DNA from: an uncultured Bacilli bacterium
Lineage (GTDB): Bacteria; Bacillota_I; Bacilli_A; RF39; UBA660
Reading direction: 5' to 3'
NCBI GenBank assembly: GCA_947586825.1
Contig: CANPXU010000001.1
Coordinates: forward strand, 11,815 to 75,814
Length of the DNA stretch: 64,000 bases
Below, piece by piece: positions 11,712-57,048 of this stretch. The position numbers and the translations under genes are program-made. How positions within the stretch are numbered: position 1 is the stretch's first letter; every line of letters begins with the position of its first letter. The notes below the pieces were generated by a model that saw only the letters and a list, made by a program, of their open reading frames with translations, did no database searches and had not been told where the DNA came from.

Positions 11712-12767
11712 TTACTTTTTATTCTTTTTCTTATGTTCAAATAAAATATTAGTCTTAGCTACAATAATGATTAAGATAAACATTAATACAATATAGATAG
11801 CTATAGCTAGTTTACTATTATTGCCTAAAGCATAGAATATTGATACTAAAGAGAAAAGAATACTTATAAAATAGATTATAAATAAACTTTTTTTTGGTGA
11901 AAATTTCATTCTAAGAAGTTGATGATGTAAATGTTCTTTATCAGGTTCTCCGATACTTTGATGCTTAATAAGTCTTCTTATAATGGCAAATAAAGTATCA
12001 AAAATTGGAATAGCAAGGATTAACATTGGCACAACTAAAGATGTAATGGTAGCCACTTTAAATCCTAGTAAAGCTATAATCGATATCATAAAGCCTAAGA
12101 ATGTACTTCCGCAGTCGCCCATGAATACTTTGGCAGGTGGAAAATTATGCGTTAAAAAGCCTAAGGTTGAGCCAAGCATAATTAAACATAAAATAACATC
12201 AAGGCCAGAAGTATTACCCATCATAAAGGCAATAACCGATATGGTAGCAAAGTAAATACTACTTACGCCAGCACAAAGACCATCAAGGCCATCTATTAAG
12301 TTAATCGCATTGATAGCAGATACAATAAATAAAATAGATATAATTTGGCCTAACAATATAGGAAAATAAAAGTTAAAGCCTAATAAAGAAATATGTTGAA
12401 AAAATAATCTTCCATAAAAGACTACAATGGATGCCACTAAAAGATGCACCAAAAATTTATATTTAGCCCTAATAGGCTTAATATCATCTAAAATACCTAA
12501 TACTACTAAAATAAATGAAGCTATTAAAATAGATAGCATTTGCGTAGTAATTTCACCATAAGCTATATAGCCAAATAAAAATCCACCATAAATAGCTATA
12601 CCCCCTAGTCTAGGCATAGGATGCTTATGAATTTTTCTTTCATTAGGCATATCCATTGCTCCCACATGGACAGCAAGCTTTTTAGATAGAAATACTAAAA
12701 TAAAACTAACTAGATAAGTTACAATTAATATCTCTAATATATTGTGATTATTAATAACAAAATTCAT
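11712..12767 (-). CDS. tagO: Undecaprenyl-phosphate HexNAc-1-phosphate transferase (TagO/WecA, MraY-like family)
   Basis: 351 aa, ~10 TM segments. Motifs MDMPNERKIHK.PMPRLGGIAIY, NAINLIDGLDGL and FMGDCGS. Confidence 0.85.
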   Translation of the reverse strand: MNFVINNHNILEILIVTYLVSFILVFLSKKLAVHVGAMDMPNERKIHKHPMPRLGGIAIYGGFLFGYIAYGEITTQMLSILIASFILVVLGILDDIKPIRAKYKFLVHLLVASIVVFYGRLFFQHISLLGFNFYFPILLGQIISILFIVSAINAINLIDGLDGLCAGVSSIYFATISVIAFMMGNTSGLDVILCLIMLGSTLGFLTHNFPPAKVFMGDCGSTFLGFMISIIALLGFKVATITSLVVPMLILAIPIFDTLFAIIRRLIKHQSIGEPDKEHLHHQLLRMKFSPKKSLFIIYFISILFSLVSIFYALGNNSKLAIAIYIVLMFILIIIVAKTNILFEHKKKNKK

Positions 12768-50330: not shown

Positions 50331-52769
50331 GTGACTTTAGTTAAATGTGATAAGTGTGGAAAAATGGTTAGTAATAATGCTTCGAAATGCATTTATTGTG
50401 GTAAGCCATTGAAACATAAAACCACCGAGAAAAGCAAAAATACTATTAAGTGTAAAAATTGTGGCAAAAGATATAATGCTTCGTATAAGTCGTGTCCATA
50501 TTGTACTAATGAGCAAGTAGAAGTTAAAGAAGAAAAAGCATATTATAAATATTTAGATTTCTTAAGAGTTATCTTCTGTATTGCTATTTTACTTTATCAT
50601 ATCGGCTTTTTAAAAGGCGGCTATTTAGCAGTTTGTTCATTCTTTGTTTTAAGTAGTTATCTTGCTGTATTATCAGCTTTCAAAAGTGAGAAATTTGATC
50701 TTGGTAAATATTATAAAAGCAGGCTTTTAAAGCTATATTTACCCGTAATTATAGTAGTCTTTATGACGATACCATTAGTTAATTCTATCAAAGGATTAAT
50801 ATGGCTTAACTTAAGACCCGAAACGACCTCCGTGCTATTTGGCTATAATAACTTTTGGCAAATCGGAGCTAATTTAGATTACTTTGCAAGACACACAAGC
50901 TCACCATTTATGCACCTATGGTACATATCAATATTAATGCAATTTGAACTTGTTTTCCCATTTATCTTTATGCTTTTAAGAAAAATGGGCGATAAAATAA
51001 ATAAGGAACTACCTAGCATCGGAGCATTTGCCCTTGCTCTTGCTAGTAGCATTTATTTCTTTATTTGTTTAAATGGCAAAAATATTATGATTCCATACTA
51101 TAATACTTTTGCCAGAAGCTTTTCTTTACTTTTTGGTCTAGGCTGTGGCTTTATGCATGTATATTATAGTGACCGAGTTCCTAAAAAAATTAAAGACCAA
51201 CCTATATGGAGTAAAGTAATATTTTATCTATATCTTTTAATTACTATCCTATTATTTATCTTTATTAAATCTGATTCTCCTTTCTTAGGAGCAAGCATGA
51301 TGATAGTAACCTTTACTTCATGTCGTTTAATAGAATATGGTATATCATTTAATAAGTGTCATATTCCTATTAATGATTATGTAATGAAGACTTTATCAGG
51401 TATGACCCTTTGGGTATACTTATTCCAATATCCACTTATCTATGTTTTCCAATATGTACAATTAAATATGGGGTTAAAAATGACATTAATGATACTTATC
51501 TTAATTAGTATATCTTTCATACTATATTATATCTTTAGAAAAGAAAGAAAATATAAATGGCTTCAAGAATTACTTGTAGCTATAATATGTGCTTTGACAA
51601 TCTTTGGAGCTTGGCAATTTTGCACCTCTAAAGATAACACATATGAACTTAAAGCTTTAGAAGATCAACTTGCTGAAAATGAAGAAAAAGCTAAAGAAAG
51701 CCAAAAAGAATATGAAAAGAAATTAGCAGAAGCTCAAAAGAAACTTGATAGTACTTTATCCGATATTGATGCTACTTTAGAAAATCTTAGTACAACCATT
51801 TTAGAGCTTCCTATCTTAGGAATTGGTGATTCGATTATGCTAGGAGCTTCACCAACACTGGAAGAAAAATTTGTTAATAGCCACTTTGATGGCGCTGTAT
51901 CTCGTCAAATATGGGGAAGCTATGATGTTATTGATGAATATAAAAAGTCTAATACCCTTGGTAATCCTATCGTTATAAATTTAGGAGCCAATGGTAACTG
52001 TGGCGAAGAATATAAACGAAAATTAGTTGAAAGCTTTGGTGATCGAGAAATATTCTGGGCTACCGTAACTAATGATAGTACAGTACAAATCAATGATAGT
52101 ATTAAGGCTTTAGCGGAAGAATATCCGAACTTACACGTCTTTGACTGGGCGGCCATCTCTAAAGGCCATGCAGAATACTTTGCTGTTGATGGTATCCATT
52201 TAACGGGCTCAGGTAGCCAGGCTTATGCGGATGGCCTATATGACGCTATTTATAAAGTATATGAAGAAAAATATACTAAACTTAAAGATGAAGCCATTAA
52301 CAACTTTGAAACCGAAGAAAAAAACAAATTTAGTTTCTATGGCAATGATCTTTTATTAAATGCTTTCTCATTATTAAAGGATACTTATAAAGATGATGCC
52401 TTTAATATGGATAGCTCTTTAGATTATAAAAAGCTTAAAGAAAAGATTCAAAAAGATATTGATGATAAGAAAATAAATAATAAAGTTGTTATAGCTCTTG
52501 ATAATAGTGTTGAGCTTTCTAAAGAAAATTATGAAGAATTAATAAATCTTTTAAAGGACCAAAAAGTATATATTATTCTTACTACAAGTGATAGTGTTAA
52601 AATCTTTAAAGATTATGAAAAAGATAATGTAATTACCATTAATTTCTATGATGAAATGAATAAGAATAAAGATAAATATCTTTTAAAAGATGAAACTCAT
52701 TTAACAGAAGATGGCAATAAAGCTCTTATTAAACTATTAGATAAATCACTAAAAGATTCTAGTAACTAA
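50331..52769 (+). CDS. OatA-like O-acetyltransferase: double zinc-ribbon + acyltransferase-3 membrane domain + SGNH hydrolase-like domain + extra C-terminal domain
   Basis: GTG start. Zinc ribbons CDKCGK..CIYCG and CKNCGK..CPYC. About 10 TM segments (acyltransferase-3 domain). SGNH-like block (ILGIGDSIMLGA ... DGIHLT). Confidence 0.7.
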   Translation: MTLVKCDKCGKMVSNNASKCIYCGKPLKHKTTEKSKNTIKCKNCGKRYNASYKSCPYCTNEQVEVKEEKAYYKYLDFLRVIFCIAILLYHIGFLKGGYLAVCSFFVLSSYLAVLSAFKSEKFDLGKYYKSRLLKLYLPVIIVVFMTIPLVNSIKGLIWLNLRPETTSVLFGYNNFWQIGANLDYFARHTSSPFMHLWYISILMQFELVFPFIFMLLRKMGDKINKELPSIGAFALALASSIYFFICLNGKNIMIPYYNTFARSFSLLFGLGCGFMHVYYSDRVPKKIKDQPIWSKVIFYLYLLITILLFIFIKSDSPFLGASMMIVTFTSCRLIEYGISFNKCHIPINDYVMKTLSGMTLWVYLFQYPLIYVFQYVQLNMGLKMTLMILILISISFILYYIFRKERKYKWLQELLVAIICALTIFGAWQFCTSKDNTYELKALEDQLAENEEKAKESQKEYEKKLAEAQKKLDSTLSDIDATLENLSTTILELPILGIGDSIMLGASPTLEEKFVNSHFDGAVSRQIWGSYDVIDEYKKSNTLGNPIVINLGANGNCGEEYKRKLVESFGDREIFWATVTNDSTVQINDSIKALAEEYPNLHVFDWAAISKGHAEYFAVDGIHLTGSGSQAYADGLYDAIYKVYEEKYTKLKDEAINNFETEEKNKFSFYGNDLLLNAFSLLKDTYKDDAFNMDSSLDYKKLKEKIQKDIDDKKINNKVVIALDNSVELSKENYEELINLLKDQKVYIILTTSDSVKIFKDYEKDNVITINFYDEMNKNKDKYLLKDETHLTEDGNKALIKLLDKSLKDSSN

Positions 52770-54827: not shown

Positions 54828-55196
54828 GAAGTCAAAATTTATTATTTTGTTTCAATTTTTTGTAATTCTTCTTTTTCTATTTGAGCAATTGATTTTGCGG
54901 GAGTAGGTAAATCTTCAGGCATATCTATCGTTTTGCCGATATCGGCAAAATGATAAGCAACCCTATTTAGCTTAATTTGATTATGTGTATTAATTATACC
55001 CTTTTTTTAAATATAGGAAAAGGTTAAAAGATCATCGTTTCTTAAAAAATTCAAAAGTTCATTACATTTTTATATCTTACTTGCGTATGCTTTACACATT
55101 AAAAATACAGAATTATATTATTTAAAATTTATTGATGTTATAATGAATTTATAAATAGTTCCACAGACTATTTTTACTGATAAAAAGGAGGTTAAA

Positions 55197-55718
55197 ATGT
55201 TATCAGGTGATGAAATATTAAAACAAATAAAAAAGGGCAACATTAAAATTGATCCCTTTTGTGAAGAGGATATTGAACCAAATAGTTATGTTGTTCATCT
55301 TGCTAATGAACTTTTGGTATATGATAATGATGTCCTAGAGTGCAAAAAGGAAAACACTACGCGTAAAATAACGATTCCTGAAGAGGGCTATATCTTAAGG
55401 CCTGGCGAGTTATACCTAGGTAGAACAGAAGAATATACCGAAACTAATGGTTTTGTTCCTATGCTAAATGGCCGTCTTTCAACAGCAGCTTTAGGTATTA
55501 CGATTCATATTACCGCGGGTTTTGGCGATAATGGCTTCAAAGGTACATGGACTTTAGAAATAATGGTTGTTAAACCAGTAAAGATTTATCCTGGTATGAA
55601 GATTGGTGAATTAAGTTATTTCCCTTTAGTGGGTGATTCTTCTCGCAAATATAAGGGTAAATACTTAGGTCAAAAAGATACTACACCAAGTAGAATCTAT
55701 ACTGACAGAAGTATATAG
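55197..55718 (+). CDS. dcd: dCTP deaminase-family protein, paralog A (catalytic D...E motif retained, GRSS..R motif degenerate)
   Basis: 173 aa. MLSGDEILK.. N-terminus. GRLSTAALGITIHITAGFGDNGFKGTWTLEI, compared with the family pattern GRSS..R.G...H.TA..ID.G..G...LE. Confidence 0.75.
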   Translation: MLSGDEILKQIKKGNIKIDPFCEEDIEPNSYVVHLANELLVYDNDVLECKKENTTRKITIPEEGYILRPGELYLGRTEEYTETNGFVPMLNGRLSTAALGITIHITAGFGDNGFKGTWTLEIMVVKPVKIYPGMKIGELSYFPLVGDSSRKYKGKYLGQKDTTPSRIYTDRSI

Positions 55719-55726
55719 GTATTAAT

Positions 55727-56260
55727 ATGTTATCAGGTGATGAAATAATTAAAGAAGTTGAAAATGGTAATATTATAATTAAACCCTTTGATAAAAAACT
55801 AGTTAATCCTAATAGTTATAATATGACCCTTTCTGACGAGCTTTTAATGTACACAGACGATATTTTAGACTGTGCTAAGGAGAATAGTACTAAAGTAATA
55901 AAAATTCCTGAGGATGGCTTAATTTTAGCTCCAGGGACACTTTATATTGCTAAGACAAATGAAATAACTAAAACAGATAAATATGTTCCATCCATAAGTG
56001 GTCGAAGCTCTATTGGTAGAATAGGTCTTACAGTTCACACTTGTGCAGGTCTTGGAACCGTAGGCTATGAAGGATCTTGGTCTTTAGGCATAACATGTGT
56101 AAGACCTACCAAGATCTATCCTAATATGGAACTTTGTCAAATATATTTCTTTCCTATCGAAGGCAAGATTAATAAAAAGTACATGGGTAGATATCAAAAC
56201 AAAGAAGATATAACACCAAGTAAAAGTTATGAAGATTTTAAAAACTTAAAAAGAGCCTAA
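55727..56260 (+). CDS. dCTP deaminase-family protein, paralog B (GRSS..R motif retained, catalytic D and E replaced)
   Basis: 177 aa. MLSGDEIIK.. N-terminus. GRSSIGRIGLTVHTCAGLGTVGYEGSWSLGI (T for D, G for E). 8-nt gap after paralog A. Confidence 0.7.
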   Translation: MLSGDEIIKEVENGNIIIKPFDKKLVNPNSYNMTLSDELLMYTDDILDCAKENSTKVIKIPEDGLILAPGTLYIAKTNEITKTDKYVPSISGRSSIGRIGLTVHTCAGLGTVGYEGSWSLGITCVRPTKIYPNMELCQIYFFPIEGKINKKYMGRYQNKEDITPSKSYEDFKNLKRA

Positions 56261-56284: not shown

Positions 56285-56575
56285 TTAATTATCTAGTATT
56301 GCTTTCAGCATTTCATTAACATTATTATATCCTTTTCTTTTTCCTTCTTTTATTTCTTGGATAATTCTTTCCCCTTCTTCTAATGATTTTAATAATTCTT
56401 TATTAGGTTTAGGATTAGATACTTTAAATGGTAATCCATCAGCCTTTATTAGTTGCTTTATTGCCATATTAACAAATGTGTTCATATCTAGACCTAACTC
56501 ATTTAAAATATTAGTAGCTTCTTCTTTATCTTTAGTAGCAACTTTTACTTTTATAACACTTGTTAAATTTTTCAT
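56285..56575 (-). CDS. RelB/DinJ-family antitoxin-like protein (no cognate toxin recognised)
   Basis: 96 aa. IKVKVATKDKEEATNILNELGLDMNTFVNMAIKQLIKADGLPFKV matches the DinJ/RelB RHH pattern. Confidence 0.65.
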   Translation of the reverse strand: MKNLTSVIKVKVATKDKEEATNILNELGLDMNTFVNMAIKQLIKADGLPFKVSNPKPNKELLKSLEEGERIIQEIKEGKRKGYNNVNEMLKAILDN

Positions 56576-56589
56576 CTAAAACTCCTTTA

Positions 56590-57048
56590 CTATTTTAATA
56601 TATCTTCCATTTTAATATTTTTTTCTTTTAACCCTAGCTTTTGATAAAATGCTATAGCATCTTTATTAAATGCCCATACATTTAACTCAATACTATCTAA
56701 ATTATCTTTAATAGCTTTATCTTTGGCTTTTAAATATAACTTAGTACCTATTTTATTATTACGATAATCTTTACTTACAGCAATATCATCAATATATAAA
56801 ACTCTTCTTTTTTTAAATAAAGGAATATTAGCACTTTCTATTACTTCACCAAGTATAATACCCATAATATTACCATTTTCTTCATAAGCAAAGTTATATC
56901 CGCTTTGAAGCATATCTAGAAAGCGATTATAAGGTAGTGAACAAGCATCATTATAAATATCAGGTCTATTTGCTAAATGAATTTGATGAACTTCATGTGC
57001 AAGTTCTAAAACTTTATCATAATCTTCTTTTACTATTTCTCTAATCAT
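56590..57048 (-). CDS. GNAT-family N-acetyltransferase
   Basis: 152 aa. YIDDIAVSKDYRNNKIGTKLY (motif A) and AIAFYQKLG. Confidence 0.75.
   Translation of the reverse strand: MIREIVKEDYDKVLELAHEVHQIHLANRPDIYNDACSLPYNRFLDMLQSGYNFAYEENGNIMGIILGEVIESANIPLFKKRRVLYIDDIAVSKDYRNNKIGTKLYLKAKDKAIKDNLDSIELNVWAFNKDAIAFYQKLGLKEKNIKMEDILK

Follow-up and report, generated by a model that had tools for sequence, protein, structure and literature searches.

Tandem dCTP deaminase paralogs that keep complementary halves of the active site: a predicted heteromeric enzyme in small-genome Bacilli

Enzymes of the dUTPase/Dcd superfamily are textbook symmetric homotrimers with shared active sites. Here we examine two neighboring genes, paralogs A and B, that encode proteins of the deoxycytidine triphosphate (dCTP) deaminase (Dcd) family and appear to depart from that plan. 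They lie in a 64,000-nucleotide (nt) stretch of DNA from an uncultured Bacilli bacterium (GTDB lineage Bacillota_I; Bacilli_A; RF39; UBA660), positions 11,815 to 75,814 of the forward strand of contig CANPXU010000001.1 in GenBank assembly GCA_947586825.1; we refer to this whole stretch as the window. A and B share their fold and family with the homotrimeric Dcd and DCD-DUT enzymes of known structure, those of Escherichia coli (1xs1), Mycobacterium tuberculosis (2qxx and 2qlp), Methanocaldococcus jannaschii (1ogh), and Bacillus halodurans (4xjc). A known Dcd, however, is the product of one gene and has three identical sites under cooperative control by deoxythymidine triphosphate (dTTP), whereas the A/B system comprises two genes, has no chain with a complete site, and is predicted to have at most one site per trimer.

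The active sites of DCD enzymes are located at intersubunit clefts, and in homotrimeric DCDs the HVTA loops are coupled three ways via a central channel, giving cooperative dTTP control (PMC4827122). Artificial asymmetric trimers have served to probe cooperativity and feedback by dTTP, and covalent trimers of human dUTPase have been engineered (PMC4827122). A natural counterpart of such constructs is the pseudo-heterotrimeric dUTPase of Drosophila virilis, which has three fold domains per polypeptide and a trimer-like body (PMC12524310). Both precedents, natural and engineered, show that a trimer can be linked or asymmetric and still be viable.

The closest published analogue of A/B is the monomeric dUTPase of herpesviruses (Epstein-Barr virus [EBV] 2bsy/2bt1). 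It consists of duplicated fold units, one with motif III and the other with motifs I, II, and IV; there is a single site, and the unused motifs decay (PMC12524310). A/B appears to follow the same logic of duplication and complementary loss in trans. The herpesvirus enzyme, though, is viral, acts as a dUTPase, and carries both of its domains on a single chain, whereas A and B belong to the bacterial dCTP-deaminase family and are encoded by two genes (with three domains in a sister system described below). Because the structural similarity is only distant (Foldseek template modeling [TM] score of 0.33 to 0.34 to EBV dUTPase), we regard the resemblance as convergent and do not place A/B in that family. 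Our literature search found no paper describing a heteromeric, heterotrimeric, paralogous, pseudoenzyme, or split dCTP deaminase.

An initial annotation of the window, made from the letters alone, had read A and B as tandem full-length Dcd paralogs with near-identical N termini, and this proved right. The two open reading frames lie on the same strand, separated by 8 nt. The proteins begin with MLSGDEILK (A) and MLSGDEIIK (B) and align without gaps over 170 residues at 48% identity. Both gave full-length matches to Pfam family PF22769 DCD (E 3e-35 for A and 2e-36 for B), and both passed the 92.8-bit cutoff of the NCBIfam model TIGR02274 dCTP_deam, A with 112 bits and B with 94.4 bits.

We assigned the catalytic columns by HMMER alignment to two Dcd enzymes of known structure, from M. 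tuberculosis (2qxx) and from M. jannaschii (1ogh). Paralog A reads G92-R-L-S-T-A-A98 ... H104-ITAGFG-D111 ... L-E121. Its Leu94 and Ala98 align with Ser102 and Arg106 of M. tuberculosis Dcd, and its His104, Ala107, Asp111, and Glu121 align with His112, Ala115, Asp119, and Glu129. Motif II of A has thus lost its first Ser and its Arg; the Asn residues of motif I and the Gln of motif IV are missing from A as well. A has kept motif III (HITAGFGDNGF), the catalytic Glu, and a C-terminal GKY arm. Paralog B reads G92-R-S-S-I-G-R98 ... H104-TCAGLG-T111 ... L-G121; it retains Arg93-Ser94-Ser95 and Arg98, and Thr111 and Gly121 replace the Asp and the Glu. The codons can be read directly in the DNA: GAT (55527-55529, Asp) and GAA (55557-55559, Glu) in A and ACC (56057-56059, Thr) and GGC (56087-56089, Gly) in B. 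By the offset to 2qxx, these columns correspond to S111, R115, H121, A124, D128, and E138 of E. coli Dcd. For both proteins, the residue assignments of the initial annotation were correct to the residue, and the alignment to solved Dcd structures bears out its claim that the substituted positions are catalytic and phosphate-binding columns. The complete catalytic set (the Ser and Arg of motif II, the Asp of motif III, and the Glu) is present in neither chain alone and in A and B combined, since each near-invariant canonical column except G75 is kept by one of the two.

The annotation had also predicted reciprocal degeneration, and comparison with relatives bore this out and extended it to further motifs. 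Relatives were drawn from searches of a catalogue of 5.8 billion proteins and sorted by motif. About 60 A-type clusters have a motif II of the form GR[LF]S.A[AS], and HITAGFGDNGF..LEI is essentially invariant among them. In about 36 B-type clusters GRSS[IV]GR never varies, whereas S, A, D, T, N, E, H, or W can occupy the Asp column and G, N, Q, A, C, T, or D the Glu column. Beyond these clusters, the next-closest proteins were ordinary Dcd with all four residues, and the closest outside relatives of the pair were canonical Clostridia/Bacilli Dcd at 50 to 60% identity.

We aligned 83 canonical sequences jointly with 59 of the A type and 38 of the B type. Columns that canonical Dcd conserves at 90% or more, here called near-invariant, fell into two complementary sets. 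N27, N32, D48, S94, R98, and Q138 are present in 100% of B and 0 to 44% of A, and T106, F109, D111, E121, and K155 are present in 93 to 100% of A and 0 to 45% of B. The only near-invariant canonical column lost in both was G75. The columns found only in B correspond to dUTPase-superfamily motifs I, II, and IV, among them the Asn residues of motif I and the Gln of motif IV; those found only in A correspond to motif III, the Glu used in deamination, and the arm at the C terminus with its Lys. Gln138 illustrates the partition: it occurs in 38 of 38 B proteins and 109 of 109 B-like domains of the sister system, in 44% of A proteins, and in 0% of the A-like proteins and 0% of the dead domains of that system. 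A-type proteins also conserve part of the motif I/II phosphate face (R93, 90%; S95, 97%; N29 and S30, about 100%). The reciprocal pattern is not due to chance; it recurs across roughly 59 clusters of A-type proteins and 38 of B-type proteins.

From these data we consider it likely that A and B are subunits of one heteromeric dCTP deaminase, obligately so, with one composite site per trimer. Because DCD sites lie at intersubunit clefts, the partition of columns is the one expected if each protein donates one wall of a single shared site. The pair would descend from a canonical Firmicute Dcd that was duplicated, after which the two copies lost complementary parts. In the Dcd/dUTPase trimer ring, each cleft would be made up of the motif III face of one subunit and the motif I/II/IV face of the next. 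The nucleoside pocket would come from A, with its HITA loop, its motif III including Asp111, its catalytic Glu121, and its Lys/Tyr arm at the C terminus. The face that binds the triphosphate would come from B, with the Asn residues of motif I, the motif II residues Arg93-Ser94-Ser95-Arg98, and Gln138 of motif IV. The only complete cleft would then be the one that combines motif III of A with motifs I, II, and IV of B, and the A/A, B/B, and reverse B/A clefts would each be missing essential residues. It follows from this ring geometry that any heterotrimer, whether A2B or AB2, should have exactly one intact catalytic site, that A3 and B3 should have none, and that neither protein should be active alone. 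The existence of the complex, its stoichiometry, its ring order, and its activity are all things that we infer. The enzyme may be bifunctional, a dCTP deaminase-dUTPase that forms deoxyuridine monophosphate.

The window's genome carries a second split Dcd system, on contig C30 (locus L003), in which two genes on the minus strand (1973-2518 and 916-1983) overlap by 11 nt at the start of the second. The first encodes an A-like protein of 181 amino acids (aa) in which motif II is fully lost (GTEELAA) and HITAGFGDNGF..LEI is intact. The second encodes a fused protein of 355 aa: an N-terminal Dcd domain without any catalytic residue, which we call the dead domain, and a C-terminal B-like domain that keeps GRSSLGR and the Gln and has Ser in place of Asp and Gly in place of Glu. 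The A-like and B-like domains show the same complementary column pattern as A and B. In this 1+2 system, the dead domain retains PNS and Lys93, and the B-like domain has a conserved noncatalytic motif III, HCSAGMGS.GY.GYW. The fused protein has more than 120 cluster relatives, and at every locus inspected an A-like gene overlaps its start. The dead domain would be dedicated to filling the third position of the ring. The C30 genes adjoin desulfoferrodoxin-like and rubredoxin/flavin-reductase-like genes.

In five clusters, all three domains form one chain of about 530 to 550 aa in the order A-like, dead, B-like. Such a triple fusion is classical Rosetta-stone (domain-fusion) evidence that the domains holding the catalytic half and the phosphate half act within a single particle. 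The AlphaFold2 model computed for P0290, one of these triple fusions, had a mean predicted local distance difference test score of 84.7 and a predicted TM score of 0.84, with only the first linker (residues 166 to 201) disordered, as would be expected for a compact three-domain body. To judge by the model, the triple fusions resemble D. virilis dUTPase and the covalent trimers. The D. virilis domains, however, are nearly identical, whereas those of the sister system are specialized (catalytic-half, dead, and phosphate-half), and the pair in the window is unfused.

The best structural match of the P0290 model, ahead of ordinary Dcd and DCD-DUT structures, was 2r9q, the solved structure of an Agrobacterium tumefaciens protein named 2'-deoxycytidine 5'-triphosphate deaminase, in which two Dcd-like domains (DCD_N PF06559 and DCD_C PF22569) are fused. 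The two aligned over 355 columns with a TM score of 0.74 to the target and 17% identity. Matches of P0290 to the two families themselves were marginal, one at E 1e-4 and 22.0 bits, equal to its cutoff of 22, and the other at E 3e-4 and 21.1 bits, below its cutoff of 21.4, and no stretch passed alone; neither family matched P0203 or the A-like protein. Unlike the fused protein of the 1+2 system, 2r9q is not encoded beside an A-like partner, as far as tested, and our literature search found no paper on its function.

We then asked what other Dcd genes accompany the split systems. The host genome (1.2 Mb, 82% complete) contains both of them, the A/B pair and the 1+2 system, and has five DCD domains, none canonical. 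We surveyed 251 sampled genomes of the same order, and the counts that follow exclude the window's own genome. The A/B pair was present in 4 genomes, the 1+2 system in 9, a single canonical Dcd in 3, and an unrelated 274-aa Dcd-fold protein in 4; 230 had none of these. No canonical Dcd occurred in the 13 other genomes with a split system, and no split system occurred in the 3 with canonical Dcd. This mutual exclusion is expected if the split systems carry out the Dcd function and do not merely modulate a canonical enzyme. The best explanation thus includes replacement of the canonical enzyme by the A/B pair in these small-genome gut Bacilli. The unrelated proteins (L096 to L099, in genomes G139, G116, G076, and G283) are frames of 270 to 274 codons, stop to stop, and are the sole Dcd-fold genes in those genomes. 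Their N-terminal Dcd/dUTPase-fold domain (GRTSFNRLG ... NPGFKG) lacks the Asp of motif III, and the domain fused to it on the C-terminal side is conserved (..HFKGNYYYIE.IC.DSETKEY.V.Y..).

Several lines of comparative evidence, independent of one another, support the interpretation put forward in the initial annotation, an obligate heteromer that rebuilds an intact site, and a number of observations weigh against it. A keeps N29, S30, R93, and S95, which the simple model does not explain. Our assignment of each Dcd residue to one subunit or the other assumes the general rule for the dUTPase superfamily and draws on the work on E. coli Dcd. The host genome also has a separate dUTPase, three zinc-deaminase-fold genes, and ThyX, and about 90% of genomes in the order lack any Dcd. 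Given these genes and this distribution, Dcd is clearly dispensable in the lineage, and its exact role there is uncertain. ThyA was not found in the host genome, at 82% completeness. The ThyX gene (PF02511; contig C5:27413-28675) encodes two tandem Thy1 domains in one 480-aa open frame; it is thus a further oligomeric enzyme of nucleotide metabolism that this genome carries in internally duplicated form.

Some of these points can also be read as signs that A and B do form a heteromer, one whose job has changed: it might act on another nucleotide, be a dUTPase only, or be a sensing or regulated enzyme whose dead clefts bind effectors such as dTTP. A single site would remove the three-way central-channel coupling that underlies dTTP control (PMC4827122). 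The part of the phosphate face retained by A and the strongly conserved noncatalytic motif III of the B-like domain suggest that the dead clefts are still under selection, and the genome already has its dUTPase and zinc-deaminase-fold genes. On the other hand, the composite site looks canonical, with all near-invariant residues but G75 kept by A or B; the split systems and canonical Dcd exclude one another, as they would if they shared one function; and no further partner gene is conserved beside the pair. We therefore regard a changed job as rather unlikely, though as the most credible of the alternatives.

The residues that A retains may be a clue to stoichiometry. The dead domain retains what A keeps of the phosphate face (N29, S30, R93, and S95), and the A-like protein has lost it. 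Because the two retained parts are equal, A may play both roles, which hints at A2B, although this is a guess. As for regulation, that of a single-site trimer would have to differ from that of the three-way-coupled homotrimers; alternatively, the conserved dead clefts may have turned into effector sites.

Linkage of the two genes bears on whether the proteins act together. We scanned one genome per GTDB species with the B-type alignment and found 80 loci, which we classified by motif since GRSSxGR is also canonical. Nine of the 80 had a B-type gene, each with an A-type gene directly upstream, and the other 71 were canonical Dcd loci, all of them single genes (0 of 71 paired). Including one further carrier from the order survey, 11 genomes had a B-type gene. 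All are small-genome uncultured metagenome-assembled genomes labeled "Tenericutes," Bacilli, or Erysipelotrichaceae, and the survey of relatives for which the initial annotation had called gave the same pair in every one: A then B, on the same strand, 3 to 12 nt apart, with 44 to 53% identity between A and B and no canonical Dcd alongside. Identities between genomes correlate for A-A and B-B comparisons (r = 0.76), A being more conserved than B (mean 73% versus 58%).

The flanks are not conserved between loci, and only the pair itself recurs; the two-gene module is therefore the inherited unit. Neighbors differ between genomes and in several are housekeeping genes (valS, HU, SpoIVA, and Der), not a defense island, and the PADLOC defense-system models gave no match for A, B, or the fused protein. 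No extra partner gene was conserved beside the pair among the loci compared, and no obvious compositional island was found at the pair. Genome G020, of the same genus, was considered as a carrier and rejected, since both chains of its pair keep GRSS..R, and it was taken out of the counts. Its genes (L113, 6363-7408, minus strand) overlap by 4 nt and are flanked on one side by a gene for a LysRS-like protein (491 aa) and on the other by one for a methyltransferase-like protein; one chain has the Glu with Asp changed to His, and the other has the Asp with Glu changed to Gln.

A and B could instead form separate homotrimers with noncanonical roles (B as a dead nucleotide binder, for example) and be neighbors only through tandem duplication. 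Both are full length, either could in principle trimerize, and tandem duplicates often remain neighbors for some time. But adjacency, order, and the 3- to 12-nt spacing have held in 11 of 11 genomes at an A-B identity of 44 to 53%; each protein conserves precisely the half-site that the other has lost; the equivalent domains are fused in one chain in the sister system; and neither type was found alone in the genomes surveyed. Independent homotrimers are, on this evidence, improbable.

A tree built from 96 domains gave support of 95 to 100 to each of five groups: A, B (15 of 16 rows), A-like, B-like, and dead domain. A and A-like were sister groups (support 89), and all the split-system clades were nested among Firmicute canonical Dcd. 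Approximately unbiased (AU) tests rejected neither placement of the dead domain, with the A types (p 0.56) or with the B types (p 0.39), and did not reject a common origin of the two B types, B and B-like. The sixteenth B-labeled row, P0073 (170 aa), was placed beside the B-like clade with support 95; it has GRSSTGR and the Asp intact, and its catalytic Glu is changed to Gly. That one or both genes are decaying, functionless duplicates, as the lack of key catalytic residues in each protein might suggest, is very improbable, given frames intact in dozens of lineages with no frameshift or stop in any locus examined, 33 invariant columns across 36 B sequences down to 51% identity, a motif III fully invariant in the A clade, and clades that are old and well supported.

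If the heteromer is accepted, the systems described here can be arranged in an order. It is possible, though we put it forward only tentatively, that these genomes preserve living stages in the passage from a homo-oligomer to a single-site asymmetric enzyme and that the dead clefts serve as regulatory nucleotide-binding sites. The stages would be the canonical homotrimer, the A/B heterotrimer (perhaps A2B), the 1+2 arrangement of A-like and dead/B-like proteins, and the three-domain single chain. Candidate regulatory faces would be N29/S30/R93/S95 of A, the PNS and Lys93 of the dead domain, and the HCSAGMGS of the B-like domain.

The features of the pair are listed in Table 1. A and B alone are enclosed by a promoter-like site with a strong Shine-Dalgarno sequence on one side and a terminator-like hairpin on the other, and within the best explanation the two genes would form a compact bicistronic operon, as read from these sequence signals.

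Table 1. Features of the A/B gene pair, in window coordinates
Feature	Coordinates	Strand	Remark
Promoter-like site TTTACA-17-TATATT, 5' of gene A	55091..55119	+	Consensus scan, 10/12 matches; pattern match only
Shine-Dalgarno-like AAAGGAGG, a few nt 5' of the A start codon (ATG)	55186..55193	+	Read from sequence
Paralog A, Dcd-fold, 173 aa	55197..55718	+	Open reading frame of exactly this extent
A degenerate motif II GRLSTAA (canonical GRSSxGR)	55470..55490	+	Ser94 0%, Arg98 0% in 59 A-type proteins
A intact motif III to catalytic Glu: H104 ITAGFG D111 NGFKGTWTL E121	55506..55559	+	A clade: Asp 100%, Glu 93%
Paralog B, Dcd-fold, 177 aa	55727..56260	+	Open reading frame of exactly this extent
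B motif-I-like N27-P-N-S-Y-N32	55805..55822	+	N27 and N32 invariant in 38 B-type, 2% of A-type
B intact motif II GRSSIGR	56000..56020	+	R93, S94, S95, R98 invariant in B clade
B degenerate motif III region H104 TCAGLG T111 VGYEGSWSL G121	56036..56089	+	
B Gln138 codon (motif IV Gln)	56138..56140	+	
Terminator-like hairpin, 9-bp stem and T-rich tail, overlapping the B stop codon	56249..56273	+	

Downstream of the pair, on the opposite strand (56285-57048, minus), lies a RelB/DinJ-like antitoxin gene (96 aa, PF04221) directly 3' of a GNAT acetyltransferase gene (152 aa), which itself comes after a NUDIX hydrolase gene, also opposite in strand to A/B; no RelE-type toxin gene adjoins the RelB/DinJ-like gene. 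Upstream, the plus strand at 50331-52769 encodes an 812-aa protein of OatA-like architecture, with double zinc ribbons at the N terminus, a membrane domain of the Acyl_transf_3 family, and a tail that is weakly SGNH/GDSL-like; three small or medium open reading frames without a Pfam match come next.

A natural obligate two-gene Dcd, if that is what A and B form, would offer a ready asymmetric system in which to ask what the other two sites of the trimer do. It would also be a clear bacterial case of complementary degeneration locking paralogs into a heteromer and, together with the 1+2 and fused relatives, would make up a graded series toward a monomer-like enzyme, parallel to the herpesvirus dUTPase. 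If the dead clefts are regulatory, one catalytic cleft with one or two allosteric clefts would be a new form of control over the dCTP/dTTP balance. Annotation pipelines name both genes "dCTP deaminase," though neither product is likely to be active alone, and this matters for the metabolic reconstruction of small-genome gut Bacilli.

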